Source of the DNA: a virus
Taxonomy: Duplodnaviria > Caudoviricetes
Direction: 5' to 3' (one strand)
IMG/VR virus record: IMGVR_UViG_3300032216_001521
Location: 1-24,316 of that record
Length of the DNA: 24,316 nucleotides
Shown here: positions 3,576-20,804 of the stretch, one piece after another
Layout: each line of letters begins with the position of its first letter
Numbering within the stretch: the stretch's first letter is position 1
Made by a program: the position numbers and the translations under genes
The notes under the pieces: model-generated
What the model was told of the DNA's origin: nothing
Seen by the model: the letters and a program-made list of their open reading frames with translations, nothing else
The model's database searches: none

Positions 3576-4281
3576 CGTCAACCCATGTGTCGATTTTGTT
3601 GACACCAGAAAGAAGTTTTTCAATAAATTCTGCTATGCCGCGGTATACAAGTGCCCAGGCGGTCGTATTATACGGCTAGCAAAAAGCGTAGACGATATTG
3701 GGCCAATGGCTCAACGTCGTTACGATAGCGATCAATTGATGGCCAAGCACTCGATATGGAATCGTGATCACTATCTCAATCCCGGTGATATTGATCAACA
3801 ACAAATATTGGCTTTTTTTGATATCAAGCATAACAAATCGTCAAATATCTGTGTAAGGATAGAAGAACCATTTGTCAGGGTATATGGCGAAACAGAACAA
3901 GAGCTGTACGAGCTTGCCAATAACGAATTGGCACAATGGAGGAGCAAGTTGCTTGAGCTGCACCGGCCGGCAGATGCTGTCTCTAAGGCAGCATTGGACT
4001 GTGGCAGTATTGTGATGAAAAATCATAACGGATACCGTTATAAGTTTATACTGCGTGATGGCTGCTACATGGAAGAAAACAAACTGGCCCTAGCCAACTA
4101 TCTCGATCAATTGGGCGACTTGGTAAAGGTATCAAAAACTGTACGCCTGAGTCTAAACCGCGACAGCAAGTACATGTGGCGCGCCTGGTTCTACAGCAAC
4201 GATTATCATATCAAAACCATGATTGATATCATTGCGCCGGGCGCGGTATCAAATATTCACGAGGTCACTTCCAGCAAATAA
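3553..4281 (+). CDS. hypothetical protein (~242 aa)
   Basis: Long ORF in operon orientation; ATG 3553 preferred over TTG 3541; no motif recognised. Confidence 0.75.
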   Translation: MINYPWRDVNPCVDFVDTRKKFFNKFCYAAVYKCPGGRIIRLAKSVDDIGPMAQRRYDSDQLMAKHSIWNRDHYLNPGDIDQQQILAFFDIKHNKSSNICVRIEEPFVRVYGETEQELYELANNELAQWRSKLLELHRPADAVSKAALDCGSIVMKNHNGYRYKFILRDGCYMEENKLALANYLDQLGDLVKVSKTVRLSLNRDSKYMWRAWFYSNDYHIKTMIDIIAPGAVSNIHEVTSSK

Positions 4282-5388: not shown

Positions 5389-6021
5389 ATGTTTATTGCT
5401 GAATTATTTGAAGATACCCATGAAACCGAAGACGTCCTGGTAATCTATCCAGGGCGTTTTCAGCCTTTTCATAAAGGACATTTTGCCGTTTACAACAGGC
5501 TGGTCCGACTATACGGACGTGACCGTGTGTTTATTGCTACCAGCAACAAGGTAGAACCTCCCCGCAGTCCATTTAGTTTTAGCGATAAAGCACAGTTCAT
5601 GGCCCTGACTGGGGTACACCTAGACCGTGTAATAGAGAGTAGCCAGCCCTATCGTGCCATAGAAATAGTAGGCCGGTACGATCCTGCTAGAACACGATTG
5701 ATTTTTGCAGTAAGCGAAAAAGACATGGCCGAAGATCCTAGATTCTCCAGCTGGGTCAAGAAGGATGGCACACCTGCTTACTTCCAACCCATGCCCCGAG
5801 ACAATCAGCCCATGACCACACTAGATCATCATGCCTATATACTCACAGTACCCACAGTAGAATTCACTGTATTAGGCGAACCTATGCAAAGTGCTACACA
5901 GATACGTGCTCGATTTGCAGCCAGCGATGCTAACACACAAAAACGCATAGTACAGGACCTGTTTGGCGGCTATAATGATGCTGTCATGGCCATTATGCAG
6001 CACAAACTTGCAGGCGTATAA
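5389..6021 (+). CDS. cytidylyltransferase-like (HIGH-family) nucleotidyltransferase, NMNAT-like
   Basis: YPGRFQPFHKGH (HxGH motif), SPFSF, and SATQIR (KMSKS-equivalent). Confidence 0.8.
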   Translation: MFIAELFEDTHETEDVLVIYPGRFQPFHKGHFAVYNRLVRLYGRDRVFIATSNKVEPPRSPFSFSDKAQFMALTGVHLDRVIESSQPYRAIEIVGRYDPARTRLIFAVSEKDMAEDPRFSSWVKKDGTPAYFQPMPRDNQPMTTLDHHAYILTVPTVEFTVLGEPMQSATQIRARFAASDANTQKRIVQDLFGGYNDAVMAIMQHKLAGV

Positions 6022-6024
6022 ATA
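6017..6024 (+). promoter_or_regulatory. late promoter TATAAATA
   Basis: Exact T4 late consensus; contains the upstream TAA stop. Confidence 0.75.
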
Positions 6025-6043: not shown

Positions 6044-6433
6044 ATGAAAAAATCCGACTTTGTTAAAGAAAACCTGGTGCTGCAAGACAATGGCATGCAG
6101 AGAGATCACGAAGTGCAGATGGCACGTGAAGAGTGCTATCACATTGCCAGCAACGCAATCGCGCTACACAAGCTGTTAAAGACTGTTAGCGAATCACATG
6201 GCCTAGATGGTTGGGTAGCTGAGAAAATCACTCTAGCCAACGACTATGTTAACACAGTCAAAGAATACTTAGAATACGAATTAAAAACCGGAAGCCCCAG
6301 TAGTGTTGCTACCTTAGGTGAAGATGGTGGCATGGGCGGCGTGTCTGCTGGTGCTACCACTGCTTCGAGCATTGCAGCAGCACCTCCCCGCAGCCTATTC
6401 CCTAAAAAAACGATTAAAAGGAAAATGAAATGA
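6044..6433 (+). CDS. hypothetical phage protein (DHEVQMAR...GWVAEKITLANDY helical module)
   Basis: ORF downstream of a late box, ATGA-coupled to the next gene. Confidence 0.8.
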   Translation: MKKSDFVKENLVLQDNGMQRDHEVQMAREECYHIASNAIALHKLLKTVSESHGLDGWVAEKITLANDYVNTVKEYLEYELKTGSPSSVATLGEDGGMGGVSAGATTASSIAAAPPRSLFPKKTIKRKMK

Positions 6434-8184
6434 GCAACAACAGCGACATGATTCGAATGCTGCGACTGGTAGAAGGTCAGCAGTTTGCAGGCTTACCAGA
6501 ACAACAGCCAGGCGACCAAGTGCGTGGCACAGAACGGGCTGTTAAGAAAGGCGATCCACAACCATTCCACAATCGTTTAGTTGGCGAAGAAATCAGCTTG
6601 GAAGATAAACTGGCCAAGAAGTATCAGGACATGAAGGACCTGCATGGCAAGGAAGTATCTGAGATGGACAAATCGCAAACACCCCCAGGCCGTGATGGCG
6701 ATCCTCGTCCTGGTCCAGAACGTGTAGCAACGCCAATAACACCAGAAAAAATGGTCAACCACGCGCTTGATACACTTTCCAAATCAATGGCTAAAAAAGA
6801 TGACAAGAAAAAAGATGTGTCAGAAGAACAAATCAATGAGTATGTCCCGGGCGACCTCGGAGTATACATAGCCGCTGCATTTGCAGCCGGTAAAGCCGGG
6901 GAAGCTGCTTACGACTGGGCAAAACAAAAATGGAAAGAGCATCAATTAAAGAACTCGGCCAAAGGCTCTAATTACAGTATGGCGGAAGGCGCCAACCGAG
7001 TTGATTCAATTGTCACTGACGCAGTAAAATTTATGAAAGGTTCAACAGTGAGTGATGCTGTACTAGCACTAAAGAGAGTGTTAGGCGATAGAGCATATAA
7101 TGAGCGCCGCGGCTTTTATAGTTTCTATGTTGATCAAATTCTTGATATGTATAATCAACAAGGCTTGGCGGAAGGCAACATGCCACAGTCAGTAATCCGA
7201 AGCAAACAAAAGTATGCTGACATGACTGACCAAGAATTCCATGCTGCACACAAGAATAAATCCGCTGAAGAATTACAGGCCATGGCTCAGCGTCATGGCT
7301 ACGGCAAAGGCAGCAATCACTATGTAGCCAAACACAAAAAAGGCGCAACAGTGACCGAAGGGCAAGAAGAAATTGAATACATCTGTTCAGGTTGCAGCGG
7401 ATCGGGCGAAGGCCCACACGAAGGTACTACCTGCAGAACCTGCCATGGTAGTGGTGTAGAAATGGGTTATGCAGATGAGCCAGCACACGATCACGATCAT
7501 GAAGAAGAATTAGATGAGTTATCAATCAATACTTTAAACAGAGTGCATGGTGCCGCGGTGCGGGATGCTGACAATTACACACGCGATGGTGATGAAGTGC
7601 GAGCACAGAAACGATATGACCTTGCAGGTAGAGCAAGCAATCAAGCCGAATTAAAAAAGAGAGCAGCAGGATTACCCCCATCCGGTCAACATGAATTAGA
7701 CGAAGATCAAAATGAAAATCCCATGTATGATGCTGCGCTACGCAGGATCATGATGCGTCACATGGACCTAATAGAAAAGTACGGTCTTGATCGTTTGCTG
7801 GATGCTGTGCGCGATGTCACAGACAGCATGCACTACGGACCAGACGATGAAATTGGTACCAGTGATGTCAGTGCCGTAATGGTTAATGTGATGAATCAAT
7901 TGAAGTCGTCGGACCATACTATCGATGAGGAAAACATACCAGCCGGTAATATCAATGCCAGCGGGTCACCAACAGTATCCAGTGGTCCTGCTCCAGTATC
8001 CGCTGGTGGCACTGCACCAACTACACCTAGCTCAACTGCGCCGGCCCCGGCAGCAACCACTGCACCTACCCCGCCCGGACAGCAGCCGCCCATGACACCA
8101 GAAGAGTTGGCAGCATTGAATAAAATCAAAGCCAATGCTGGCTTAAAGGCCCAGTACGATAGACTGATGCAACAGGCACACTAG
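6430..8184 (+). CDS. modular polyprotein 1 (584 aa), putative head-packaged protein; contains a CxxCxGxG x2 Zn finger and a Pro/Thr-rich tail
   Basis: Short segments separated by hydrophobic-x-E motifs (LVE, VGE, VSE, INE, MAEG, GLAEG, VTE, LDE, IDE). Confidence 0.8.
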   Translation: MSNNSDMIRMLRLVEGQQFAGLPEQQPGDQVRGTERAVKKGDPQPFHNRLVGEEISLEDKLAKKYQDMKDLHGKEVSEMDKSQTPPGRDGDPRPGPERVATPITPEKMVNHALDTLSKSMAKKDDKKKDVSEEQINEYVPGDLGVYIAAAFAAGKAGEAAYDWAKQKWKEHQLKNSAKGSNYSMAEGANRVDSIVTDAVKFMKGSTVSDAVLALKRVLGDRAYNERRGFYSFYVDQILDMYNQQGLAEGNMPQSVIRSKQKYADMTDQEFHAAHKNKSAEELQAMAQRHGYGKGSNHYVAKHKKGATVTEGQEEIEYICSGCSGSGEGPHEGTTCRTCHGSGVEMGYADEPAHDHDHEEELDELSINTLNRVHGAAVRDADNYTRDGDEVRAQKRYDLAGRASNQAELKKRAAGLPPSGQHELDEDQNENPMYDAALRRIMMRHMDLIEKYGLDRLLDAVRDVTDSMHYGPDDEIGTSDVSAVMVNVMNQLKSSDHTIDEENIPAGNINASGSPTVSSGPAPVSAGGTAPTTPSSTAPAPAATTAPTPPGQQPPMTPEELAALNKIKANAGLKAQYDRLMQQAH

Positions 8185-8194
8185 AAAGTATACC

Positions 8195-11100
8195 ATGCGT
8201 TTATTTGATGTTTTTTCCTACAACGACCAATTAATAACCGAGTCGGCCGTAACACAATTTGCCAGTGCGGCACATGAAGAATGGCGTAGAAACTTTGACC
8301 CCACAGGTGCCAAGCCCAGGATTAAAAAGAACAGCGACGGCACTGAGGGCGACATTAATGTGCCGTTCAATAAACTGCATCCCGACTGGCAACGAGAAAA
8401 CCTAGCCGCTGGTCAGGCAGCTGAACAGGCTGTGAAAAAATTTCCCAATGACATTGAAAAGGCCGCAGAGTATATCCATATTGAATGGATGAAACGTAAT
8501 CCTAAAGCTGATTACAATGCTGCACAGCATGTGCCATACGATGCTTTGCCCGAAGATGAAAAAGAAAAAGACCGTGTGCATGTTCGTACCATGATGCAAC
8601 TGATGGGACATCGTCCCGAGCAAGGTGTGGCGGAAGGCTTGAATGAATTTGCTCAGGGATCGGGTGGCGGTGAATCGGGACGTTGGTACACGGATGACCA
8701 AATGACTGACATAGTAGGCGATGGATGGTGGCAAGACATGGATGTCAGCGAACATACATTTTGGATACTTGATTCAGAAGTGCCAAAAGAATACATGATC
8801 CAACAAGCACAAGCCTGGTTGGATGACCAAGGCTATAGTGTTCAAGTACTGAATTGTCGAGTAAATGATGATGACATGGATTGGTTCATTGAAGGCAGTT
8901 TCCATAATCCTGGCTTTGCTAAAAAAGGTGTGGCGGAAGGCATACTAGGTTCAGATCCAAATCGTGGACAGAAAGTTCCTGGGTGGGCCAAGGGAGGTAT
9001 CATAGGAAAGATAGGTCGCAAGTTAGATCCAGCCTGGAGTGATATCCAAATGACTGTTCCTCAGCACCTACTATCTAAGCAATCTAGTGTACCTGCTGCA
9101 AAATCACCAGCCGCTAAAGACATGCCCAAAGCCGCGGCGGTTACTCCTACTAGAGCGATTCCACAGAGCGTAGGAACCAAACCATCACTGCCGGTGACGA
9201 AGAATGTTGTAAAAACAATAGCAGATAAGCCAGGCGTGGAGGAGGCTGCACAAGGGCATACCATTGAAGCACACGGTATTCGTGGCATGGATCGTCGCAC
9301 CTGGCACAAGACTTTTCGGAACTCGGACCAAATGACGGCCTGGGCCGAAAAGTATGATGCAGAGATTCTAGGCACCCGTAATCTAGAACAAGCACAGCAC
9401 GGTAACTTATCTCCTGCTGAGCAAGGCGTAGACGAAACTGCTAAATTACGCGACAAGCGTGATAGATTCAAAAGCATACACAAGCCGGACCTGGTGGAAA
9501 CAGAACCAACACATCGCATTGGTGTTACTGTAACTGACCCCAATCACCCCATGGTCGGCAAGCGAGGCGAAACTGTTCAGAAGAGTATACGTGTAAAACA
9601 CACAGACCGTGATGCGGCAATCGCTAGAGCTGTCGCACACTATCGTCGCAAAGGATATAAGGTACATGACCATCACTACATGGGCACTGTTGATCAAGAT
9701 GTCGCAGAAGGCGACTTTGGTCCAGCAGCCACTGCCGCAATACAACAGGGGAAAAGCCCAAGCGATGTTGCATATGCCGCCACTAAGGACGTACAAAATA
9801 CAGCACGATCATTAAAAATTCAGCAAGATGTTGCCAACGGCGATGATCCTACATTGACCAATGCTGGCAACGCTGCACGCCGTGCTGGTAATACTTCGGT
9901 AGAAGAGGCGCAAGGTGTAGCGGAGAACGACACTGCTAAAGATGTTAACAAGTTCTTTAATAATGTTTACGATCCTGTTTTCACTAATCTACAGCGAGTA
10001 GCATTACTTGCTATGCAAGGTAGACAACAGGAAGCATCTGGACAGTTACGTTCAGTAATCAAAGATGCCGATCCCGCAGTACAAAAACGAATTATCGATG
10101 CTGTAAACAGTATCAAACCTGTGACAATCAATGGCAAGATAGCCGATTCCAGCACCATAGACAAGAGCAAACAGCATCAAGATTGGATCATCAACACATT
10201 TATTCCTTGGGTACAATCTCAATTGGGCGAGCACAGTATAGACGAATCTAATGTGTTCACTGATGCCAGAATGAATGCTATCAAAGCAGACCAAGACACA
10301 TTTGTAGTACACGGTAAAAAATATCCAGTAACCGGTGACACTACAGATGAAAAACAAGCAGGGTTTAACGAAGATTGGAACAAGGTCAATCATCATGATC
10401 GCACCAACGGACTCAGTCAAAAAGCAGTCAATGCTTATCGTAGAGAGCACCCTGGTAGTAAATTGAAAACTGCTGTCACTACCAAGCCCAGTAAACTCAA
10501 GCCCGGTAGCAAAGCTGCCAAGCGCCGCAAGAGTTTCTGTGCTAGAATGTCGGGTAACAAAGGGCCAATGAAGAAGCCCAATGGCAAGCCCACACCTAAA
10601 GCCCTGGCACTGCGTAGATGGCACTGCGAGAGTGTTGAAGAAATGCAACAGATGATTGCACGTGGCGAGCAGATGATTGCTGAAATGAAACAGCAGCATC
10701 TCGGTGAAGAGTGGAGCCAAAAATACAAGAACAGTATCAATTGTAGTCATCCCAAGGGATTCAGCCAGAAGGCCCATTGTGCTGGCAAGCGCAAGCACAA
10801 CGAATCAATTGAGATGGAAATGGTGTGCGAAGACTGTGGCATGTGTCAGTCACATGGCAATCTAAATGAGATCAAGAAGGGTGAAAAAGATTCAAATGGC
10901 TACACTCGTTGCTGGCCAGGCAAACATGCAGTAGGTACTAAGAAAGGTAAGAATGGCGGCCAGGTTCGCAACTGTAAACCTAATGAAGGTGTGGCGGAAG
11001 GCAAGGGTCTAGCCAAGAAGGTAAAAGTTGTCAAAGGCGAACACGCTGGTAAGACAGGTTGGATTAGAGAAATTAAGCACGGTGCCTTTAAAGGTGCCCC

Positions 11101-12052
11101 AAAAACCTATTACATTGATTTAGACGATGGCGGGCAAGCCAACAATCTACCTGCTACAGCATTACGTTTGGTTAAAGAGCAAGGTGTGGCGGAAGCCGGT
11201 ACCAGTGCCGCAGTTAGATTGGGCCGTGCTATTGAACGCACACAAGGTAAAACAGCAGCCAGTCAGGCACGATCAGTCATCCCATCAAGCATTCCTAAAA
11301 AAGAAGAGCCCAAGAAGGATGAGAAGAAAGTTGATGAAGCGTTTTCATTACCCACAATGGACGATGTCAAGGCCAAACTGCTAAAAATAAAAGCCGCACT
11401 GGGTCAAGAAGCCGACGAAACTAAACAAATGTTTGGTACCTATGTAAAACATTCTCGTGGTCAAGCCAGCGACCAAGAAATGGCGGCAGCCAACGAACAA
11501 CTTAAAGATGTACTAAGAGGCGTGGGCATGGGAGTATTTGCGCTAGTGCCTGGGCACATAATCACAGTTCCACTGTTATTTGGTCTTGCTAAAAAGTACA
11601 ACATACAACTATTGCCCAGTGCATTTAGAAGTGAGCCTGCCCCACAGGCACAACCTGTAGCAGAAGGAATACAAGTCGGTGATGGATTCATCATCGAGTG
11701 CGGCGACAGTGCCATTGAAACTGTAGTGCTAGGTGACTATCATGATGGCATACTAATTGAGTTTGATCATACTGCCACCTTCATGTTAATTGATCATGGC
11801 ATCACACTAACCGAAGCCGAGTATCAAGGACACAACGTACCACTGGGCAAGCCCATGCAGGGCGATGTCAAGAAAAGCAAAGTCTACGTTAAAAAGCCCA
11901 ACGGCAATGTAGTCAAAGTCAATTTTGGCGACAAGAACATGACTATCAAAAAGCACTTGCCCAAGCACAGAAAAAGCTATAGAGCTAGACACCACTGTGA
12001 GAACCCTGGACCCAAGTGGAAAGCCAATTACTGGAGTTGCCGTGCTTGGTAA
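8195..12052 (+). CDS. modular polyprotein 2 (1285 aa): RyR-like repeats, unknown modules, basic Cys-rich modules, KOW/SH3-like, LETM1-like, C-terminal basic Cys/Trp module
   Basis: Single ORF; domains bounded by GVAE-type linkers; motifs HEEW...VPFNKL and HIEW...VPYDALPEDEKEKDR, VKVVKGEHAGKTGWI, QLKDVLR...VPG...LLPSAF. Confidence 0.88.
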   Translation: MRLFDVFSYNDQLITESAVTQFASAAHEEWRRNFDPTGAKPRIKKNSDGTEGDINVPFNKLHPDWQRENLAAGQAAEQAVKKFPNDIEKAAEYIHIEWMKRNPKADYNAAQHVPYDALPEDEKEKDRVHVRTMMQLMGHRPEQGVAEGLNEFAQGSGGGESGRWYTDDQMTDIVGDGWWQDMDVSEHTFWILDSEVPKEYMIQQAQAWLDDQGYSVQVLNCRVNDDDMDWFIEGSFHNPGFAKKGVAEGILGSDPNRGQKVPGWAKGGIIGKIGRKLDPAWSDIQMTVPQHLLSKQSSVPAAKSPAAKDMPKAAAVTPTRAIPQSVGTKPSLPVTKNVVKTIADKPGVEEAAQGHTIEAHGIRGMDRRTWHKTFRNSDQMTAWAEKYDAEILGTRNLEQAQHGNLSPAEQGVDETAKLRDKRDRFKSIHKPDLVETEPTHRIGVTVTDPNHPMVGKRGETVQKSIRVKHTDRDAAIARAVAHYRRKGYKVHDHHYMGTVDQDVAEGDFGPAATAAIQQGKSPSDVAYAATKDVQNTARSLKIQQDVANGDDPTLTNAGNAARRAGNTSVEEAQGVAENDTAKDVNKFFNNVYDPVFTNLQRVALLAMQGRQQEASGQLRSVIKDADPAVQKRIIDAVNSIKPVTINGKIADSSTIDKSKQHQDWIINTFIPWVQSQLGEHSIDESNVFTDARMNAIKADQDTFVVHGKKYPVTGDTTDEKQAGFNEDWNKVNHHDRTNGLSQKAVNAYRREHPGSKLKTAVTTKPSKLKPGSKAAKRRKSFCARMSGNKGPMKKPNGKPTPKALALRRWHCESVEEMQQMIARGEQMIAEMKQQHLGEEWSQKYKNSINCSHPKGFSQKAHCAGKRKHNESIEMEMVCEDCGMCQSHGNLNEIKKGEKDSNGYTRCWPGKHAVGTKKGKNGGQVRNCKPNEGVAEGKGLAKKVKVVKGEHAGKTGWIREIKHGAFKGAPKTYYIDLDDGGQANNLPATALRLVKEQGVAEAGTSAAVRLGRAIERTQGKTAASQARSVIPSSIPKKEEPKKDEKKVDEAFSLPTMDDVKAKLLKIKAALGQEADETKQMFGTYVKHSRGQASDQEMAAANEQLKDVLRGVGMGVFALVPGHIITVPLLFGLAKKYNIQLLPSAFRSEPAPQAQPVAEGIQVGDGFIIECGDSAIETVVLGDYHDGILIEFDHTATFMLIDHGITLTEAEYQGHNVPLGKPMQGDVKKSKVYVKKPNGNVVKVNFGDKNMTIKKHLPKHRKSYRARHHCENPGPKWKANYWSCRAW

Positions 12053-12056
12053 GCAG

Positions 12057-12064
12057 GATAAATA
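12057..12064 (+). promoter_or_regulatory. late-type promoter box GATAAATA
   Basis: Intergenic, only 5 nt before ATG 12070. Confidence 0.65.
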
Positions 12065-12069
12065 ACACT

Positions 12070-12537
12070 ATGGAAGAACTACAAAAAGCCGCTAAAATTG
12101 GATTTGCCAGTGAATTCAGTTTCTACTTGAAAGCACACAATTTCCACTGGAACATCGAAGGAATTCACTTCCAAGAATTACACTCGCTATTTGAAACCAT
12201 CTATGATGAAGTTTACGGTAGCATAGACCCTTTCGCAGAAAACATACGCAAGCTCAATGCCTATACACCAGCTAGTCTGGCACGTTTTAGTATGTTAAGT
12301 ACTATTGACGATGAAAACGAAATGTTAGGCCCAACAGAAATGTTGCAGGAATTGCTCGACGATTCCGATAAGATGGTGCGTGTACTCAAGATGATTTACG
12401 ATATCGCCGAACGTGAAGGCGAACATGGTTTCAGCAACTTCCTAGCTGAACGCATGGATGCACACCGTAAACACAGCTGGCAACTGCGAGCCAGTTTAAA
12501 AACTCGTGATCATGAGCCTCCTGCCCTGGAGGCGTAA
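12070..12537 (+). CDS. dps: Dps / ferritin-like DNA-protecting protein (155 aa)
   Basis: KAHNFHWNIEGIHFQELHSLFETIY...IDPFAENIR ferroxidase signature and H.KH.WQLRA C-terminus. Start moved to ATG 12070 because the track's GTG 12016 lies inside the upstream gene. Confidence 0.93.
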   Translation: MEELQKAAKIGFASEFSFYLKAHNFHWNIEGIHFQELHSLFETIYDEVYGSIDPFAENIRKLNAYTPASLARFSMLSTIDDENEMLGPTEMLQELLDDSDKMVRVLKMIYDIAEREGEHGFSNFLAERMDAHRKHSWQLRASLKTRDHEPPALEA

Positions 12538-15218
12538 TGAGACTACACGACTTTGATAGTGTATATGAAAACATGGACCACAGCAAGGATGGCCGGGCTG
12601 TGCCTGAGCTCAAGGCCGCGCTAACTGCACACAGCAAAGAAATACAATCGGCTACAGACGATCAAGTCTATGACATAATTGATCGTATGATGACTCGCAT
12701 TGCCAAGAGTCATGGCATCAGCGGACAAAAACTACACGACATGTGGGTTGACAAGTATGGTCAAATACCCGACACCTGGGTAATGAAAATCAAAGAAAAC
12801 TTAGAAAAAGGTGTGACCGAAGAATTCACCAACTACCAAGGGCTTAGAACTCCTAAAAATGAACCTGGGGTGAATTTATTTCCAGGTAAGGACATAGTAG
12901 GTCGTCGTGTATATCATTGTACTAATAATCTCGAAGCAATCAAAAAAAGCGGTGGATTAAAACCCAGGCGTGATGCTACAGGCGAACGAGAGTACGGTCG
13001 TTTGAGCACAGATAAGCATCCATTCATTCCTGTAATAGGTGTTTGGTTTAGTGTAGGCAAACCAGACTGGGTTGGCAAGCACTGTTTGAGTTTTGTTATA
13101 GAACCCACAGATCAAGTATACGTGGCCTACACCAACACCAAGGGATTGTATCCAAATGTTGTTTTAAATCCCATCGCATTAGATAGATTGACCGTAGAAG
13201 ATCAGCAAGGTGTGGCGGAGGCCACAGGCGATAAGCGATTTGATAGTATGATGGGACAGATCCAGCGAGAGCCCACTATCCCCGACTCACAAATGCCGCC
13301 AACTGATGTACGAGATCTACATGCCTGGGCAGTAAAAAACAACAAGCCATATCATAAAATCTTTGCCGGGTGGGCCATGAGAGAAGGATACAAGTCTGTT
13401 GCACCAGCATTGCAGAAAGCTGGCAATTTGGATAGTGATGCTTTAGATTACTGGACCCCCGATGTTTGGAAACTGTGGTATGGTCCTGATGCAGAAATGC
13501 CCCGTCACTGGAGCAAACAGCGTGTGCCCGATGAATTGAGAGATTATCTTGAAACTGTGTTCGATGCATACGATCGCATAGTGTTTGATTGGCCCACAGA
13601 ATATCGTCAGATCAAAGAACAAGGTGTGGCGGAAGGCTCACTAAACGAATTTGCTGTTGAACCATCAGATGGCGGAGATGACGATGAATATGATTTACTA
13701 GTTAAATTAGTCAAAATGTGGTGGACGGGTAATGAACAGCAACATTTTAAGGCAGAAAAAACATTAGCATCAATGGGAATTTCTATTGAAGAAAATGATC
13801 CAGATATCATTCTACACAGAGGTAAACAATTCCTCACATTCCCTATGGATGATTTCCAGCAAGGTGTGGCGGAGGGCTCCAGTGATACTATCTACCCTAA
13901 CGCAGAAGTAATCAAAAGTAAGAACGGTAAGCCGGTAGGTGAGATTTATCAAGACGGTAACAGTTGGGGTTGCTTCCACTATCGTGCTGATCGTGGATAT
14001 GATCTTATTGATAGTAGAGAAGAAGCCATTGAAGCACTCAAAGACTTACATCAGGAAACAGGTCGCAGTCGTCCAGACTATACTATCAAAGGTGTGGCGG
14101 AGGCGTTTGATACCCCACTTCCAATAACATGGGAAAAGGGTATGCACGGTGATGTTGATGCACTTGCCAAATTACCCGATGGATCAAATTTAAGCATTAT
14201 GTTTAATAAACAAGATAATATTAAACCCGATGACAAGACATGGATGGTTGAATTTTATAGAAACAACAGTCAAGAAGTAACAGGTGAGGGTGACGCACAA
14301 AAAGTATTTTCTACTGTGTTAGTTGCTATTCAACAATTTATTAAAAAATACAAACCACTAAAAATCTATTTCTCAGCAAGCAAAGAAATGGATCCAGGTA
14401 TAAATTATGGCCCAGATGATGTTGTGCCTAATCCCGAAAGTCGTGCCAAGCTATATGATAGAATGGTACTGCGTTATGCTAAATCTTGGGGATATAAGTT
14501 TTTCCGTGCTGATAACGGTTCTTCTGTTGTATATCAATTGTCTAGGATGAAATCAAATGTAGCGGAAGCAGAAGCAGCCACCAAGAACAGCAATGCAATC
14601 TGGCGCCAACTCAAAGCAGCTGGTTATCAATATGTTGCCAGTGGTGCTGACGCCACTGTATGGGCCAAGGATGAAAGCCATGTGATCAAGATATTGATGC
14701 CAGAAGACTTGGGCAACAAGGCAGAACAGGTATTCCGCAAGTTTTATGAAACAGCTATCAAACACCAAGATCTAGCATGCCTGCCAAAATTCAATGAAGT
14801 CAACACCATCGACATCAATGGTAAGGACTATCTTCAAATTGAGATGGAGAGGCTACAGCCCATTGAAAAAGGCACTTTCACAGAAGGTGTTGTTTGGTTC
14901 TTCAGTGACTATTGTCAGGCACAATCATCATGGGATCAAGTGGATCATGCCCTGGGATTATCCACTACCTGGGATTGGTATCCGTACGCCAAGGGTTCAA
15001 AGAATCTTGCTGCACAGTGCAGCAAGCAATGGCAAGATTTAATGTACAATAAACGATCCTACGCTATGTACAAACAGCTATATAATGTAATGAAGCTATT
15101 GTATACAACAGGTACGATTAATCGTTATGGATGGGATTTGCACACAGCCAATGTCATGCAACGGGGCAACGGGCAGCCGGTGATCATTGATCCGTGGTTC
15201 AGTGAAGGAACATCATGA
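12537..15218 (+). CDS. modular polyprotein 3 (893 aa): helical module, ADP-ribosyltransferase-like module, three unknown modules, a repeated alpha/beta domain, C-terminal protein kinase-like domain
   Basis: Six GV(A/T)E/NVAE junctions; YHCT...I...GLKP...GVWFS; ASGADATVW, VIK, WDLHTANVM, IIDP. Confidence 0.88.
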   Translation: MRLHDFDSVYENMDHSKDGRAVPELKAALTAHSKEIQSATDDQVYDIIDRMMTRIAKSHGISGQKLHDMWVDKYGQIPDTWVMKIKENLEKGVTEEFTNYQGLRTPKNEPGVNLFPGKDIVGRRVYHCTNNLEAIKKSGGLKPRRDATGEREYGRLSTDKHPFIPVIGVWFSVGKPDWVGKHCLSFVIEPTDQVYVAYTNTKGLYPNVVLNPIALDRLTVEDQQGVAEATGDKRFDSMMGQIQREPTIPDSQMPPTDVRDLHAWAVKNNKPYHKIFAGWAMREGYKSVAPALQKAGNLDSDALDYWTPDVWKLWYGPDAEMPRHWSKQRVPDELRDYLETVFDAYDRIVFDWPTEYRQIKEQGVAEGSLNEFAVEPSDGGDDDEYDLLVKLVKMWWTGNEQQHFKAEKTLASMGISIEENDPDIILHRGKQFLTFPMDDFQQGVAEGSSDTIYPNAEVIKSKNGKPVGEIYQDGNSWGCFHYRADRGYDLIDSREEAIEALKDLHQETGRSRPDYTIKGVAEAFDTPLPITWEKGMHGDVDALAKLPDGSNLSIMFNKQDNIKPDDKTWMVEFYRNNSQEVTGEGDAQKVFSTVLVAIQQFIKKYKPLKIYFSASKEMDPGINYGPDDVVPNPESRAKLYDRMVLRYAKSWGYKFFRADNGSSVVYQLSRMKSNVAEAEAATKNSNAIWRQLKAAGYQYVASGADATVWAKDESHVIKILMPEDLGNKAEQVFRKFYETAIKHQDLACLPKFNEVNTIDINGKDYLQIEMERLQPIEKGTFTEGVVWFFSDYCQAQSSWDQVDHALGLSTTWDWYPYAKGSKNLAAQCSKQWQDLMYNKRSYAMYKQLYNVMKLLYTTGTINRYGWDLHTANVMQRGNGQPVIIDPWFSEGTS

Positions 15219-16123
15219 CATGTTTAGTATTAACTCTAACAAATGGATTGACACAAAAAGAAATATACTTTGACATATTTGAGACCGGCATTGCAAAAAA
15301 ATGGGCTGTTGAAGTTGGTAAAAACTACACCATTTATGAGAGTGATAGATTTGTAAATTGGACAAATAATAAAAAAAATAAAGATTACTACATCACTGAG
15401 TTGAATAAGCAAATGCAGGTAGTAGACAGTTACTGCCCAACTATTATACCTTTCTTTTTCCAACCAGATCAAATAAATCAAACCACATTTAATATTCTAC
15501 ATAAGTTCTTTGAAGACACAAGAGGACCAATTGAGGATCCTCCAGAGTTTTACAAAACAGCACCACGTGAGGTACAGGAAGCAGTTAACAGATTCAATGT
15601 AATGATACACGAATTTGAAAGCTGCGTGTTTAACGAGCGGTTGAATAATGAACATCCGCAATCTAGAGTAGTTGTAACATTTAACAACCGAGTGAGACAT
15701 GGGTTGACTGATGATGATTACAAACATTTTACCATGAAGTGGATATTTGGTAACGTGTATGTCAACTACTGCGAAGTTGGTAAAGCCATACTCGACGTCA
15801 TCAAAGATAAAGATACGCATGTCGGCACTGATAACATTAGACCGCAACGCCATTACAGTGCCGATTTTCAAGTCAAGTTTGCTCCTACAATAAGTGACAG
15901 AGAATATGCTAGAAGAATGTATTGGTTTGACTCAGAGTATGCCAATAAAAAAGATTTCTTTGAAAGTCTAGGGTTCCCGTATAATGATAAATTATCACTG
16001 GGATCCATTCCGGTCGCCAGTCTAAATCGAGACCGCAGTGGATTTGTGGGCCTGTCTGATTTTGAAATAATAACCAGTTTAGGTGACTTTGACTCTGTAT
16101 TCAAAACAGAAATCAAAGAATAA
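15215..16123 (+). CDS. hypothetical protein (302 aa), AT-rich
   Basis: Long ORF, ATGA-coupled; no motif recognised. Confidence 0.8.
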   Translation: MTCLVLTLTNGLTQKEIYFDIFETGIAKKWAVEVGKNYTIYESDRFVNWTNNKKNKDYYITELNKQMQVVDSYCPTIIPFFFQPDQINQTTFNILHKFFEDTRGPIEDPPEFYKTAPREVQEAVNRFNVMIHEFESCVFNERLNNEHPQSRVVVTFNNRVRHGLTDDDYKHFTMKWIFGNVYVNYCEVGKAILDVIKDKDTHVGTDNIRPQRHYSADFQVKFAPTISDREYARRMYWFDSEYANKKDFFESLGFPYNDKLSLGSIPVASLNRDRSGFVGLSDFEIITSLGDFDSVFKTEIKE

Positions 16124-16135: not shown

Positions 16136-16927
16136 ATGAGAGCAAAAGAATTTTTAACTGAATTATTTCAAAGTCATAGCGGCTATGAAATAACCTCGGT
16201 GCCGTATGGTGATACGGTACAGAACGGACAGCTTAAATACGTCTTTGTTACCGATCCTGATGATAAAAATGAATATGGACGTCAAGGTGAAGTAGTAATC
16301 AAGCAAATCAAAGATGCCAATGTAGATTTAATCTTTGTAGAGTTTAATATTGAAGGCAGTACTGATACATCGGGATTAGGTGATCAATTCAAAATTTTAG
16401 GTGCAGTGGTAAAAGCAGTTAATAGATATTGTAGAATATACAAGCCCAAATATATTGTATTTGAAACAGAGGATCCTAAAAAGTTAAGCATGTACAAAGC
16501 AATGGTGCGTAGACAAGTGTTCCCAGGATATCAAACTATTGTACAAAGTTTGGATGATTACAATAAACTTATAGCAACTGACAAGGAACTTACTAAACAA
16601 ATTGGACCTAGACTTGCTGGGTTTGCTGATGAGATGGTGATGTTACAAAGAACAGAAGGTGCCGATAATATAAAACCACCAGAAGTAAAAGGCCAGTATG
16701 TAATTTATGGCCTGAACAAATATAGAGGTAAAGTATTTCATAGATTAGATGCACCGTCAGATGGCAAAGCACTACAGTTTGCCCGTGAATGGATAGAACA
16801 AAACTCAGCGAGATTGGGCGAACGTTGGGGGCTTGACAGAGGTAGACACTGGGACCTGGCAAAAGACCCACATGGTGAGTTTGCCCCTGCCCCGGCAGGT
16901 CAATATTCAGTAGTTGGACAAAACTAA
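16136..16927 (+). CDS. putative head-packaged protein with CTS-like N-terminus (MRAKEFLTE); paralog of 16929 and of a module in 12537
   Basis: Shared motif F...(T/S)G.GD...(V/I)(L/F).(T/A)V..A(I/V)..(Y/F)...Y(K/R)P..I.F......Y..M. Confidence 0.85.
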   Translation: MRAKEFLTELFQSHSGYEITSVPYGDTVQNGQLKYVFVTDPDDKNEYGRQGEVVIKQIKDANVDLIFVEFNIEGSTDTSGLGDQFKILGAVVKAVNRYCRIYKPKYIVFETEDPKKLSMYKAMVRRQVFPGYQTIVQSLDDYNKLIATDKELTKQIGPRLAGFADEMVMLQRTEGADNIKPPEVKGQYVIYGLNKYRGKVFHRLDAPSDGKALQFAREWIEQNSARLGERWGLDRGRHWDLAKDPHGEFAPAPAGQYSVVGQN

Positions 16928-16928
16928 C

Positions 16929-17384
16929 ATGAGAGCACAAGAATTGACAGAACTGTTTGATGCCAAAACAGCATTCCCATTGCAATGGGATAACCAGTTT
17001 GCCAGCAGTGGTGAGGTACACGCAGAAGCGTATGATGCAGATGGTAGAACCATTGACATATCATTTACTCCATTGGATAATGGAGAAGCAATTGAAATTG
17101 TATTTAGTCGTGGCGGTAGCTACGACTTGACTGGTCGTGGCGATGCAGCAAGAGTCCTGTCCACAGTGGTCAAGGCTATCGGCATGTACTTGCAAAAGTA
17201 TCGGCCGTCTTATATTGCATTCAGCGCCAAGTCTACTGGTGGCAGGGCAGGTACGTACTCGGCAATGATTCGTCGTCTTGCTGGTAGCTACACTCTATTG
17301 ACTCCACAAGAATATCCCGAAGAAGTAGGTCGTTTCTTAGATTTCCTTGGCAGTGACAAACCTTTTATATTGGCAAGATCATGA
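16929..17384 (+). CDS. putative head-packaged protein with CTS-like N-terminus (MRAQELTE)
   Basis: ATG 16929 follows the upstream TAA; same domain as 16136. Confidence 0.85.
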   Translation: MRAQELTELFDAKTAFPLQWDNQFASSGEVHAEAYDADGRTIDISFTPLDNGEAIEIVFSRGGSYDLTGRGDAARVLSTVVKAIGMYLQKYRPSYIAFSAKSTGGRAGTYSAMIRRLAGSYTLLTPQEYPEEVGRFLDFLGSDKPFILARS

Positions 17385-18988
17385 GAGCACAAGAATTTAT
17401 TGCAGAATCAATCAAGCTAGACAACAATGATGCTGCTCGAGCATTCATTGAACGAGTGTATGCACGGTATCCTTCTCGCTGGGATAACAATCATGTTATG
17501 GTTTGGGGCGAAGGTGATGAACAACAGTTTGCCATGTTTGAATTGACACCCAGTTTTAGTCGGCGCGGTGCGGTTGAAGTCAAGTGGTTCCAAGCATATC
17601 CATTGCGTCAAGGTGTTGGCTCACGTGCCATGCAGGAACTACAAGCCATGGCTCGAGAAGATGGTATTAGTCTTACCTTGTTCCCTTGGGACAAAGGTAA
17701 AGTAAGTCAAAGTAAACTAACAAAGTTCTATCGAGGCCAAGGCTTTCGGCCTGCTGTCAAGGGCAGCAAGAACATGCAATGGGATCCTAGTATAAATGAA
17801 GGATTACGTGTTGATGTGCCCAACGAAGAATGGTTGCAAGACGCAATTGACTATGCTGTAAGCAAAAGCCCCGATCGCAACGGTTTACCTTACATGGGCA
17901 AGACCACTGCCACTGTTAGGGAAGTTGATGTTCCGGTTAGCTTACTAAGACGAATACCAGGTATGCGCCATGAGCAATCAAACGTGAGATACCACGATCT
18001 TGATGCTATCATGAAAATAATGAGCGACACCGGTAAACTACCACTACACTCACATACTGGACAAGAGTACAAACCATTTATCAATGTAGCATACGATGGC
18101 AGCGCATGGGTCAACGAAGGTAATCACAGGATCATGGCCGCGGCACGATTAGGATGGGAGTCATTGCCAATAGAGATCAGTTACTTTGATGGTGGTGAGC
18201 GCATTGAGTCGGGACCAATGTATCCCAGCAAAATTGGCCTAGGTGAGCCGCTTGAAGAATTCAGTGATGTTGATCTCGAAGAAGATTGGCGCAATTGGGT
18301 AGCTGCTGGCGCACTGGGATTAGGTGCCATGGGCGGAGCGCAAGCTTCTATGCAACATGCTGCTCCAGTTAGCAAACCAGCAATAGTGCAACCAGCACAG
18401 GCACAGAAAGCAGCACCAGCTGCAACACAGGCAGCTCCAGCACAGAAAGCGGCAGCACAGCAGACACAGCAGACAGCACCTGTGCAGGCCCTGGACGCCA
18501 CGGAAAAGTATCTAGCCAGTGTAGCAGGTCAGGCCGGTATCAAGGGCACTGAACTGGCACAGTTCCTAGCACAAGTAAAACACGAGAGCTGGGACTTTAC
18601 TAAAATGGATGAAAAAGGCAGTGCCAAATACTTTAAACACAAATATGATCCGCAGTTCGCACCAAAGACTGCAAAAATAATCGGTAACACCAAAGTGGGC
18701 GACGGAGAACGATATCATGGTAGGGGCTATATACAGCTGACTGGTCGCGACAACTATCGCATGGCAGGAGCAGCATTAGGAATCGACTTGTTAAATAGCC
18801 CGCAGTTGGCTGCAGACCCCGCAACCGCAGCCAAGATAGCAGTATGGTTTTGGCAAGCTAGGACTAAAAATATCGCAGACTTTTCGGATACCAAATCAGT
18901 AACTCATAAAATCAATCCTGCACTACATGGACTAGAAAGCAGACAGGAAAATTTTGCCGAGTATGCAAAAATGTTACGCACAGCCTAA
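17381..18988 (+). CDS. fusion: GNAT acetyltransferase + ParB/Srx-like domain + GH19 lysozyme-like hydrolase, CTS-like N-terminus
   Basis: GNAT RQGVGS and LTKFYRGQGF; ParB-N VNEGNHRIMAAARLG; GH19 AQFLAQVKHES, YHGRGYIQLTGRDNY, AVWFW, VTHKIN. Confidence 0.88.
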   Translation: MRAQEFIAESIKLDNNDAARAFIERVYARYPSRWDNNHVMVWGEGDEQQFAMFELTPSFSRRGAVEVKWFQAYPLRQGVGSRAMQELQAMAREDGISLTLFPWDKGKVSQSKLTKFYRGQGFRPAVKGSKNMQWDPSINEGLRVDVPNEEWLQDAIDYAVSKSPDRNGLPYMGKTTATVREVDVPVSLLRRIPGMRHEQSNVRYHDLDAIMKIMSDTGKLPLHSHTGQEYKPFINVAYDGSAWVNEGNHRIMAAARLGWESLPIEISYFDGGERIESGPMYPSKIGLGEPLEEFSDVDLEEDWRNWVAAGALGLGAMGGAQASMQHAAPVSKPAIVQPAQAQKAAPAATQAAPAQKAAAQQTQQTAPVQALDATEKYLASVAGQAGIKGTELAQFLAQVKHESWDFTKMDEKGSAKYFKHKYDPQFAPKTAKIIGNTKVGDGERYHGRGYIQLTGRDNYRMAGAALGIDLLNSPQLAADPATAAKIAVWFWQARTKNIADFSDTKSVTHKINPALHGLESRQENFAEYAKMLRTA

Positions 18989-18990
18989 CA

Positions 18991-18998
18991 CATAAATA
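18991..18998 (+). promoter_or_regulatory. late-type promoter box CATAAATA
   Basis: Intergenic, 20 nt before ATG 19019. Confidence 0.65.
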
Positions 18999-19018
18999 TA
19001 ACATACTAGGAATTTACC

Positions 19019-20434
19019 ATGAGATTTCACGAATTTATCGCAGAAGCAGCAGCAACAAAAACACTGGGTGGTTTTACAGTAACGCCAGTTCACATCAGTG
19101 GGGAAGAAACTGTAAGGGAAAATGCAGAAGAACTCCATGTGGGCGATCCAGTTACAGTCACCGGCAATGTGGAATTCAATGGCAGCACTGGAGAAATCGT
19201 AGAATTTGGGCGTGACAAACGTTTTGTCGTAGTTGACCTATACAATCATGGACGTCAGAGTTTCCACAGCAGCGATATCGAATACAATGACTATGCCGAC
19301 AGCGACGAAGAAGAGGCCCGGGCATACGACAGTGATCCTGCTGCAAGAGACTGGAGTCTAGAAGAAGCGCTCAAGCTCAATGCTCCACAGAAGTCTTGGT
19401 CTAGACAAGACATGCAGGATTACTTGACCCGTATCAAAACTGGTACAAAAACCAAACAAGATAGATTCAAGCCCATCATACACGGCAGCAATGTCAAGGC
19501 CATTACCAAAGATGGCGGCGGCGAAGAATGGGACTTGGAAGACCTAAAACGCCAAATCACCACACCGCCCAGAGCCATTTTGGGATCCAATGCCAAGATG
19601 AGCAAGAGCAAAAAAGAAGGCGCTATCACATACGACTTGACTTTGCCGGCACTGAGCGGCATTGTTGTAGATGAAGAGACTGGCGAGTTTGTAGAGATTA
19701 CCACATGCCCAGGCGCTGGCGAATGCCAACTGTTCTGCTATGCTCGTAAGGGTGGCTATGTCATGTTCCCTGCTGCTTCTATGAGCGCAGCACAAGCCTT
19801 GAACTTCTTGGTCAATCATCCCCAAGACTACATGCAGATGTTTGACAGTGAAGTCAAACGCACCAAGGCACTAGCAGACAAGAACGGTATCAAGCTGTTG
19901 GTACGCATACACGATGCTGGTGACTTCTTCAGCAAGGAATACTGGGAACTGAGCAAGCAGGTACAGGAAAACAATCCAGACGTGCGCTTCTACTTCTACA
20001 GCAAGATGGGTGATCCAGTAACTGACCCCACTACACCTGCCAACACACTGCCCAACTTCAGTGACGGTGGTGCCAAGAGCCGCGAAGTTAAAAAGGTCGA
20101 GTTCCACAGGAACGCTGGCAAGAACCTTAAAGGTGCGCCAACTATTCCCAAGGACATGTTCCGGGACTTGTTTGTTACCGATGCCAAAGGCAAGTATGTC
20201 AAGGACGAGCAAGGCCGCACACAGGTCAAGAGCCCAGCTGCATGGGCCGGATTCAAACAGAAGCTGGCTGCCAAATACAGCATTGACCCCGAAAGCATCA
20301 TCACATACGATCAAATGAACAAGATTCCCGAAGGCCCACAGCCCAAATGGAATGTGGTGGTATTCCCGGCCGGGCACGGCGACCTAGGTGCCACACGCCT
20401 GGATGTACAAAATCAATTTTTGATGTTCCACTAG
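19019..20434 (+). CDS. Gp88-like (putative Fe-S / radical-SAM-related) protein with CTS-like N-terminus and an SH3/KOW-like module
   Basis: TCPGAGECQLFCYARKG, VRIHDAGDFFS, FYFYSK; N-terminus MRFHEFIAE. Confidence 0.75.
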   Translation: MRFHEFIAEAAATKTLGGFTVTPVHISGEETVRENAEELHVGDPVTVTGNVEFNGSTGEIVEFGRDKRFVVVDLYNHGRQSFHSSDIEYNDYADSDEEEARAYDSDPAARDWSLEEALKLNAPQKSWSRQDMQDYLTRIKTGTKTKQDRFKPIIHGSNVKAITKDGGGEEWDLEDLKRQITTPPRAILGSNAKMSKSKKEGAITYDLTLPALSGIVVDEETGEFVEITTCPGAGECQLFCYARKGGYVMFPAASMSAAQALNFLVNHPQDYMQMFDSEVKRTKALADKNGIKLLVRIHDAGDFFSKEYWELSKQVQENNPDVRFYFYSKMGDPVTDPTTPANTLPNFSDGGAKSREVKKVEFHRNAGKNLKGAPTIPKDMFRDLFVTDAKGKYVKDEQGRTQVKSPAAWAGFKQKLAAKYSIDPESIITYDQMNKIPEGPQPKWNVVVFPAGHGDLGATRLDVQNQFLMFH

Positions 20435-20435
20435 C

Positions 20436-20804
20436 ATGAGACTGCGTGAATTTGCCGAATCCAAACTACCCGACTACATACGGGAGTTTTTGCCGCATGT
20501 TCAACGGGAATTAAAACTACACGAATTTCCCAAGATCGAACTGTGCCGTCGCTTGCCTGGTGATTCTACACAAAGCAGTTTTGGTATGTACAAGACTGAT
20601 GAGAATTGCATATATCTTGTAGCAGTGGATCGTAACCCAGTAGACATCCTGCGCACACTGGCACATGAACTAACACACTACAAACAAGACCAACAGGGCT
20701 TGCTAGATCAAGACAGTGGTCACACTGGTAGCCGAGCCGAAAACGATGCCAACGCACAAGCCGGCATCATCATGCGCAACTACGGCAAGCGACACAAATT
20801 CTAG
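20436..20804 (+). CDS. small HExxH zinc metallopeptidase-like protein with CTS-like N-terminus
   Basis: ILRTLAHELTHYKQ plus a downstream E..ANA.AG third-ligand helix. Confidence 0.8.
   Translation: MRLREFAESKLPDYIREFLPHVQRELKLHEFPKIELCRRLPGDSTQSSFGMYKTDENCIYLVAVDRNPVDILRTLAHELTHYKQDQQGLLDQDSGHTGSRAENDANAQAGIIMRNYGKRHKF

Follow-up and report, generated by a model that had tools for sequence, protein, structure and literature searches.

The 24,316-nucleotide virus record IMGVR_UViG_3300032216_001521, here called the window, encodes three polyproteins whose modules are joined at an in-frame 13-bp repeat, AAGGTGTGGCGGA. The window is the complete 24-kb record and, judged by its sequence, a fragment of a T4-like jumbo phage of about 350 kb; genomes of relatives stand in for genome-wide counts. 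The repeat is real and widespread in this phage clade. Its DNA is fixed at synonymous sites across phages that are otherwise near saturation, and whole modules have disappeared, appeared, changed order, passed from one gene to another or been duplicated, always in frame and with their ends at the repeat. The explanation that we favour, with moderate confidence, is that the repeat is a joint with a double code: an exchange point for the phage's own T4-type recombination and at the same time a predicted cut site of the prohead protease.

Copies of the repeat and their constraint at the DNA level

Polyprotein 1 (6430..8184, + strand, 584 amino acids) consists of modules joined by linkers of the type hydrophobic-x-Glu. 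Polyprotein 2 (8195..12052, + strand, 1285 amino acids) has a T4 head-tag-like start and about 16 modules, and polyprotein 3 (12537..15218, + strand, 893 amino acids) contains a DUF6934-like module and a C-terminal kinase-like module. The 13-mer matches the window exactly eight times (8622, 8925, 10986, 11181, 13207, 13621, 13861 and 14089), always on the + strand and in one codon phase, with spacings of 303, 195, 414, 240 and 228 bp; in these respects the count in an earlier note on this DNA was correct. Every exact copy is read in frame as x-Gly-Val-Ala-Glu (xGVAE). Four copies are located in polyprotein 2 and four in polyprotein 3. The earlier note had all three polyproteins marked by the repeat, which holds for these two, whereas the open reading frame (ORF) of polyprotein 1 contains decayed copies only (2-3 mismatches). 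Ten decayed in-frame copies with 1-4 mismatches, for which "about nine" was a fair estimate, keep the hydrophobic-x-Glu end, whereas a 3-mismatch match at 13713 falls outside the frame. Counted with at most two mismatches, the window holds 11 matches against 0.34 expected, a number reached in none of 100 shuffles, and no match to AAGGTGTGGCGGA was found on the - strand at up to three mismatches. The codons GGT GTG GCG encode eight of the nine GVAE peptides of the window, where their codon fractions are 0.38, 0.25 and 0.09. Some cassettes had been suspected to be AT-richer; modules 13621-13861 and 14089-14554 indeed have 38.3% and 37.0% GC next to 42-48% in their neighbours, a comparison that is descriptive only.

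For a motif-independent sample we used the Dps/ferritin-like gene between polyproteins 2 and 3 (12070..12537, + strand) as an anchor and fetched loci of relatives by the Dps protein, keeping the best 80 of 219. In these loci GGT GTG GCG encoded 74 of 117 distinct GVAE peptides, compared with 0.64% expected, and the Gln codon before GVAE was CAA 72 times and CAG once. All 70 exact copies, from 37 of the 80 loci, lay on the coding strand and none on the opposite one. Loci chosen by the motif, with the query copies excluded, gave 86 of 117. The proposal that these codons are fixed beyond selection on the peptide was thus borne out. Synonymous sites elsewhere are near saturation, and because identity at four-fold sites of Dps was 0.26-0.55 in the 17 more distant loci (19 of the 80 loci were measured), the identity of the repeat is not simple descent of the region. 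The repeat is therefore constrained at the DNA level.

These data also bear on the possibility that only the peptide is selected, as a good protease site, with the DNA identity left from duplications and with breakpoints at linkers since only whole-domain rearrangements survive. In its favor, other linkers are enriched for breakpoints as well (see below), and the cultured cyanophages S-SRM01 (QPX48171, L629:7504-9333) and P-TIM68 (AIR93437, L628:7981-9264) encode polyproteins that consist of the same modules and have hydrophobic-x-Glu joints but no copy of the repeat. However, the linkers LNE, LDE, VDE and IAE show mixed codons, unlike the fixed GVAE, and before Gly the residue can be Q, E or K although the last two bases of its codon stay AA. 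Since the identity holds where synonymous sites are near saturation, the synonymous test largely refutes selection on the peptide alone, which we consider very improbable.

The GVAE frame holds for 304 of 305 exact copies, and all 146 repeat spacings within ORFs are multiples of 3, with a median of 78 codons. The consensus is common to phages of 36-47% GC. Conservation around the repeat fades gradually, from -4 to +16, with no sharp stop; the 13-21-bp repeat shows no inverted symmetry, and a second dominant repeat was not found among 10-12-mers in the Dps-anchored loci. A search with a 17-mer yielded an estimated 1,100 viral stretches. In prokaryote genomes about 160 stretches were found in 596 billion bases, with about 70 expected at equal base frequencies; a host repeat was rejected, as the 80 prokaryote stretches listed were all single-copy and taxonomically scattered. 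A genome-wide Chi-like or uptake signal was rejected on account of the few, mostly clustered copies per relative genome (5, 5, 7, 3, 1 and 1, 0, 2, 1, 0 at up to one mismatch). Shine-Dalgarno-like pausing was rejected on theoretical grounds: the repeat keeps GGT, although GGA would give the better pairing.

Loss, reordering and transfer of modules at the repeat

In a comparison of 211 sequences, 368 of 876 internal homology ends fell at the repeat, whereas the null distribution had a mean of 62 and a maximum of 90 in 500 draws; the counts lack phylogenetic independence, and the motif had served to select 130 of the sequences. Left homology ends peak at the first base of the repeat (offset 0) and right ends at +14 to +16. 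Breakpoints between orthologs, the check proposed in the earlier note, thus map to the repeat, and neither identical domain order nor unrelated breakpoints nor background codon usage, named there as contrary outcomes, was found.

The relatives L131 and L132 have a Dps protein 97% identical to that of the window, and their polyproteins differ from it in content and order. Their orthologs of polyprotein 2 keep the last modules and differ in internal content and order. In L131 the modules 12808-13207 and 13207-13621 are in reversed order. The polyprotein 1 modules 6995-7139 and 7168-7506 are found in other places or in another gene in L132, the former inside the ortholog of polyprotein 2. A contig of run X6 jumps exactly 399 bases from 12808 to 13207 and one of run X4 654 bases from 13203 to 13857; X4 also shows an in-frame loss of 183 bases between two ELDE linkers. 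Taken together, L131, L132, X4 and X6 demonstrate precise module loss, reordering and transfer between genes. Duplication comes in addition: L063 carries one module twice (99.4% identical) with the repeat at both ends, in two genes and with four different neighbours. The supposition that domain-sized cassettes are lost, gained and swapped in frame at the repeat therefore stands.

Copy by copy, on the + strand throughout, the repeat at 8622..8634 (QGVAE) is a breakpoint against L131, L132, X2 and X4, that at 8925..8937 (KGVAE) against L132 and L103, that at 10986..10998 (EGVAE) against L131 and X4, and that at 11181..11193 (QGVAE) against L131 and L132. In polyprotein 3, breakpoints at 13207..13219 (QGVAE) occur in L131, L162, X4 and X6, the neighbours of 13621..13633 (QGVAE) differ in L131, L162, X1, X3, X6 and X8, and those upstream of 14089..14101 (KGVAE) in L131, X2, X3 and X6; the module 13861-14101, which begins with the QGVAE copy 13861..13873, is present from repeat to repeat in L036, L091 and L180. 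Among the decayed copies, KGVTE with two mismatches (12808..12820) forms the left edge of the 399-bp module that is absent here in L131 and X6. The three copies within 9231..9708 of polyprotein 2 (9231, 9423 and 9696) each lie at a homology end versus relatives, and at QPVAE (11652..11664, four mismatches) homology picks up at 11663-11678 in L131, L132 and X4. The remaining ones are a 1-mismatch QGVAE (9912..9924), SNVAE with four mismatches before the kinase-like module (14554..14566) and three copies within 6812..7172 of polyprotein 1 (6812, 6974 and 7160). Contigs of run X1 span the junctions at 10986, 11181, 12808, 13207, 13621, 13861 and 14089 with zero differences, but X1 is possibly the source sample of the window and so not independent; 8622 and 8925 are unspanned by X1 contigs among the matches listed. 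As a separate observation, a short module in L017 (2654-2816 and 3974-4065) occurs in tandem and dispersed copies, each flanked by decayed repeats.

To count partners we merged identical windows, which left 722 distinct sites. Pairs of sites shared the upstream flank only in 195 cases, the downstream flank only in 189 and both in 19, and flank families with at least two members had more than one partner in 81 of 92 and 82 of 91 cases. Even at flank identities of at least 95% the other side was unrelated more often than shared (29 versus 10 and 26 versus 9). Bases left of the repeat track the upstream module and bases from +15 on the downstream module, whereas variants inside the repeat track neither. 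Stable junctions were commoner among decayed copies (14 of 27 sites with three mismatches versus 33 of 333). When a module end carried the exact repeat in one phage and had another neighbour elsewhere, the partner junction was an exact repeat in 113 of 237 and 84 of 182 comparisons and decayed or codon-shifted in 48 of 237 and 45 of 182. From these counts, together with the repeat-free junctions given below, it follows that the repeat is the main joint but not the sole one and that it was attached repeatedly. The codon offset at which it joins a given module end varies, and 23 of 23 such shifts are multiples of 3.

Mis-joining of contigs at the repeat would be a trivial source of such junctions. 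In L001-L080, 19 of 78 repeat matches are no more than 300 bp away from the end of a contig, where 3.3 are expected, and the 167-bp duplicate in L063 could be mis-resolved. On the other side, the contigs of the Logan index are built on 31-letter words, which are longer than the repeat (13-21 bp), and the window and alternative junctions were recovered from separate runs. Moreover, the frames are open in all but one of the 305 copies, the sequences of modules found in more than one context diverge by 5-25%, and contig ends near the repeat fit strain diversity there. We therefore regard an assembly artefact as the least credible explanation. Assemblies tend to break in module arrays, and the polyprotein genes are probably under-sampled.

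Probable prohead protease site and candidate agents of exchange

The peptide ends in hydrophobic-x-Glu, a point missed by the earlier note, and in sequence GVAE resembles a cut site of the gp21 family. T4 gp21 cleaves after L/I-x-E (PMC9026906). It chops scaffold proteins and strips a 10-residue targeting peptide from internal proteins, which are then ejected (PMC9026906, PMC5694885, PMC3012670, PMC10052503); Ip1-3 each block a different restriction system (PMC12373910). The DNA polymerase of the window is 80-84% identical to those of uncultured records of 208-357 kb and 40-51% identical to those of cultured jumbo phages including Phosso, Paride/PA5oct and Atu_ph07. A prohead protease of the gp21 family (PF03420) was detected in eight of nine relatives, as was gp23, whereas the window fragment itself is without head genes. 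In the relatives, the scaffold and capsid proteins contain [LIVM]-x-E in abundance. By eye, many ORFs of the window begin with short tag-like peptides; likeness to a targeting peptide (about 10 residues with an L/I-x-E end) is clear in ORFs 16136, 17381 and 19019 and looser, with longer starts, in the three polyproteins. Because of the specificity of gp21, the [LIVM]-x-E-rich scaffolds and the tag-like starts, the polyproteins are likely head-packaged cargo that is cut at VAE into separate effectors. The protease-like ending probably also explains how the junctions look at the protein level. G002 (L211-L228), a relative rated 99% complete, gave no gp21 or gp23 match, possibly due to a gap at the record ends.

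The earlier note had placed an integron-like site with its own recombinase at the repeat and had seen no recombinase in the window. Indeed, the 20 window ORFs scanned gave no match to recombinase families. Tyrosine recombinases (PF00589) were found in 0 of 9 relatives, and serine recombinases (PF00239), IS110 (PF01548) and reverse transcriptases (PF00078) each in 0 of 5 near-complete relatives. With none of these four families detected, and with the same cassettes joined elsewhere by repeat-free linkers, the idea of an integron-like site with its own recombinase was not supported. The T4-type recombination set was checked in G002 only, where 143 of 350 ORFs were scanned by Pfam and 20 by PHROGs; RecA/UvsX, UvsY, a UvsW-type helicase, an SMC/phosphoesterase pair and SSB are present.

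In the mechanism that we propose, the polyproteins would be late, head-tagged proteins that the gp21-family protease cleaves behind Glu, so that the modules enter the host as small effectors of their own. Perfect copies of the repeat would cross over within one genome or between co-infecting genomes, via UvsX/UvsY/gp46-47 or template switching, and so renew the junctions. A perfect but not a decayed copy could recombine with every other copy in the common pool, and for this reason, we suggest, one consensus persists against AT drift. New modules would join the array less often, through microhomology with one end of the repeat or the other. Flanking bases that track the module on their own side, variants inside the repeat that track neither, stable junctions at decayed copies and graded conservation fit such a short-homology exchange between perfect copies, with decayed ones dropping out.

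Several points weigh against this reading, among them the dependent and partly motif-chosen homology-end counts given above. A length of 13-21 bp is short for UvsX-type recombination, and homology alone leaves unexplained why there is one universal G-rich consensus instead of lineage variants; when variants were grouped by locus and not by contig, there was hardly any clustering (p 0.02 at position 7 and 0.22 at position 10). Homology does not predict that the Glu codon GAG is commoner if the next codon is not Gly (23/85 versus 13/186 families; background GAG fraction 0.10-0.14), and in melting temperature the coding of the repeat comes only 19th among the 64 synonymous ones. The complete uncultured relative G010 has no repeat copy at up to one mismatch. 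The repeat is wholly absent from 76 of 237 and 53 of 182 alternative junctions (about 30%), and other hydrophobic-x-Glu linkers likewise show an excess of homology ends (228 versus 133 +/- 10); because of these linkers and the repeat-free junctions, whole-domain selection explains part of the breakpoint pattern. Concerning the protease, Val at P3 lies outside the quoted T4 motif, and [LIV]xE is not significantly depleted inside modules (81 versus 90.5 +/- 9; control enzymes 117 versus 104 +/- 9).

The universal consensus, in phages of 36-47% GC with near-saturated synonymous sites, would be better explained if an unrecognised sequence-specific phage factor, be it a new recombinase or a nuclease whose nicks or cuts feed the T4 machinery, reads the 13-mer, the role of the protease being the same. 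We regard this as possible but rather unlikely. It would imply a dedicated recombination system whose 13-bp target also encodes a head-protease cut site, and hence a clade-wide combinatorial library of injected effectors joined in frame, which we consider equally tentative. Such a factor would agree with the homology ends that pile up exactly at base 0, with variants inside the repeat that are inherited with neither flank, and with the codon-shifted attachment of the repeat to one module end. The sole candidate is a stand-alone GIY-YIG protein (PF19835), which is present in all nine uncultured relatives and above cut-off in none of the five cultured jumbo relatives RsoM2USA, Phosso, Paride, Vibrio 2.275.O and XaC1, none of which contains the exact repeat. 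Phage T6 amplifies anti-defence genes by a UvsX/UvsY-dependent process that is driven by a homing endonuclease (PMC13096335). Nevertheless, the GIY-YIG protein is widespread among cultured T4-like phages, with relatives in 492 cultured phage records, mostly of cyanophages, and the protein is present in G010, which has no repeat. The negative recombinase scans, the missing inverted symmetry and the graded edges likewise speak against a sequence-specific factor. In G002 the GIY-YIG protein has 142 amino acids (L211:5324-5749) and is encoded near gp46/47-like genes; it is single-copy in all nine relatives. The PHROG label of its family, 'NAD synthetase', looks like a mis-annotation, and a search for a relative with solved structure found none. 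A link to the target of T4 EndoII was dropped, as its target consensus was not found in the passages of PMC2764454 consulted.

The codon choice could alternatively reflect the G-rich strand itself. With its four GG runs (GG-TGT-GG-C-GG-A(A)-GG) it might form a two-tetrad quadruplex or be favoured in strand pairing; such a structural hot spot would stall replication or promote strand invasion, and exchanges would start there. In the codons for Val and Ala the fixed G at the third position creates runs 2 and 3, and GAG replaces GAA mostly where the next codon gives no fourth run, in the families counted above. ViennaRNA, with quadruplexes allowed, folds a 22-mer as a quadruplex, but the predicted stability is only -1.4 kcal/mol. 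The fourth run is missing from 76 of the 323 exact copies, this reading does not account for the fixed T and AA positions, and a literature search did not find a preference of RecA-family proteins for GT-rich DNA. A structural hot spot therefore seems improbable to us, and we retain the double-coded joint used by the phage's own recombination as the preferred explanation.

Module content, neighbouring genes and comparison with known systems

A Pfam scan of 30 window modules gave one match above cut-off, DUF6321 in polyprotein 2, which also contains weak RyR-like and KOW-like modules. The matches to RyR, KOW, DnaJ zinc finger, DUF6934 and Kinase-PolyVal were all below the Pfam cut-off. The kinase-like module of polyprotein 3 matches the kinase phrog_15752 with an E-value of 9e-9 and Kinase-PolyVal with 0.0037. 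A 133-codon module of the same polyprotein (12822..13217, + strand), which is shifted downstream in L131, offers a weak lead to an ADP-ribosyltransferase-like fold, with feature scores of 0.90-0.91 to Arr/PARP/ART clusters and recognition under threshold. The first module of polyprotein 2 (8240-8632) is RyR-repeat-like (Pfam E-value 4e-4, under cut-off), and a divergent similar module is found at the same position in L132. A 52-residue module at 7360-7515 shows a CxxCxGxG zinc-finger pattern of the DnaJ type (Pfam E-value 4e-4, under cut-off); the phage also encodes a DnaJ protein (436-1293). Other genes of the window code for ClpA, Dps, a family 19 glycoside hydrolase and a family B DNA polymerase. 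The 242-residue ORF directly after ClpA (3553-4278) is conserved and matches unnamed viral clusters only, and similar ORFs follow ClpA in L173 and L207. A 302-residue ORF with 36% GC (15215-16123) gave no Pfam or PHROG match and is absent at this place in L131, where homology breaks off at 15218 and resumes at 16136.

The octamer TATAAATA, which resembles a T4 late promoter, lies at 6017..6024 (+ strand) ahead of the gene run 6044-12052, and another copy, with one mismatch, stands at 12057 upstream of Dps and polyprotein 3. Similar sites stand directly ahead of ORFs 4496, 5389, 6044, 12070, 16136, 19019 and 23118, but their total in the window is not above chance. The region 16136..20804 (+ strand) comprises five genes with head-tag-like starts of 8-9 residues that end in hydrophobic-x-Glu or similar. 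Two of their products are stand-alone DUF6934-like relatives of the polyprotein 3 module, and a family 19 glycoside hydrolase fusion, a Gp88-like protein and a metallopeptidase-like protein are encoded as well; ORFs 17381 and 19019 also look modular. An Rfam search for structured RNA gave no matches.

The system would represent a way to rebuild multi-effector cargo proteins of phages in frame, with one sequence apparently serving both as DNA exchange point and as protease site. The repeat can be used as a search tag, which in the sample led to about 570 distinct starts of downstream modules, and thereby gives a library, with defined boundaries, of small candidate proteins that may be injected for anti-defence or host takeover. 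The old idea of linker-mediated modular evolution becomes testable at the scale of domains, and the polyproteins of S-SRM01 and P-TIM68 can be used for virion proteomics.

Integrons consist of the tyrosine recombinase IntI, an attC hairpin with inverted symmetry, and cassettes that are separate genes. The system described here likewise has an array of mobile cassettes that are reordered and exchanged among genomes at a repeated site. It lacks a tyrosine recombinase and a palindromic attC-like site, its cassettes are in-frame domains, and it is not an integron. The literature search, which mostly did not extend to subscription journals and did not cover supplements, found no description of this repeat.

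Closer parallels exist among T4-like phages. PeSLs mediate shuffling by repeats without an integrase in RB49/phi1, PST and nt-1 (PMC2839356, PMC4122927); the authors compare them with integrons and leave a helper protein open (PMC2839356). As with PeSLs, a short conserved repeat is the exchange point of unrelated accessory cassettes in a T4-like phage without integrase: insertion, deletion and replacement breakpoints lie at the repeat, and a T4-type recombination set without integrase is present (the set in G002). In contrast, PeSLs are intergenic promoter-terminator elements with a sigma70-like promoter and a stem-loop that move whole genes and form mini-circles, whereas our repeat of 13-21 bp lies in the reading frame (304 of 305 copies coding), encodes a peptide and moves domains.

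The internal proteins IPI-III and Alt of T4 share with the present system short N-terminal tags ending in hydrophobic-x-Glu (here tag-like starts, looser in the three polyproteins), a gp21-family protease (here in relatives), small diverse cargo and variability associated with repeats (PMC9026906, PMC3012670, PMC12373910), and the T4 IP loci are polymorphic (Repoila 1994 as described in PMC2839356). In T4, however, every IP has a small gene to itself, with a separate tag and promoter, while here one tag serves many modules per chain; the shuffling repeat forms an internal joint, and packaging and cleavage are predictions from sequence. Like polyvalent proteins, the polyproteins are long, contain many unrelated effector-like domains and are predicted to be packaged and injected (PMC5512222, PMC7824862). 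They also resemble them in variable architecture, weak Kinase-PolyVal and ART-like matches and stand-alone module copies nearby. In contrast to polyvalent proteins, most modules here match no Pfam family. The accessible text of PMC5512222, with zero occurrences of the word 'linker', names no conserved DNA linker for polyvalent proteins and raises recombinational variability only as a possibility. Taken together, the system likely works like PeSL-type modular shuffling joined to the packaging of T4 internal proteins and the architecture of polyvalent proteins, with a probable double code.

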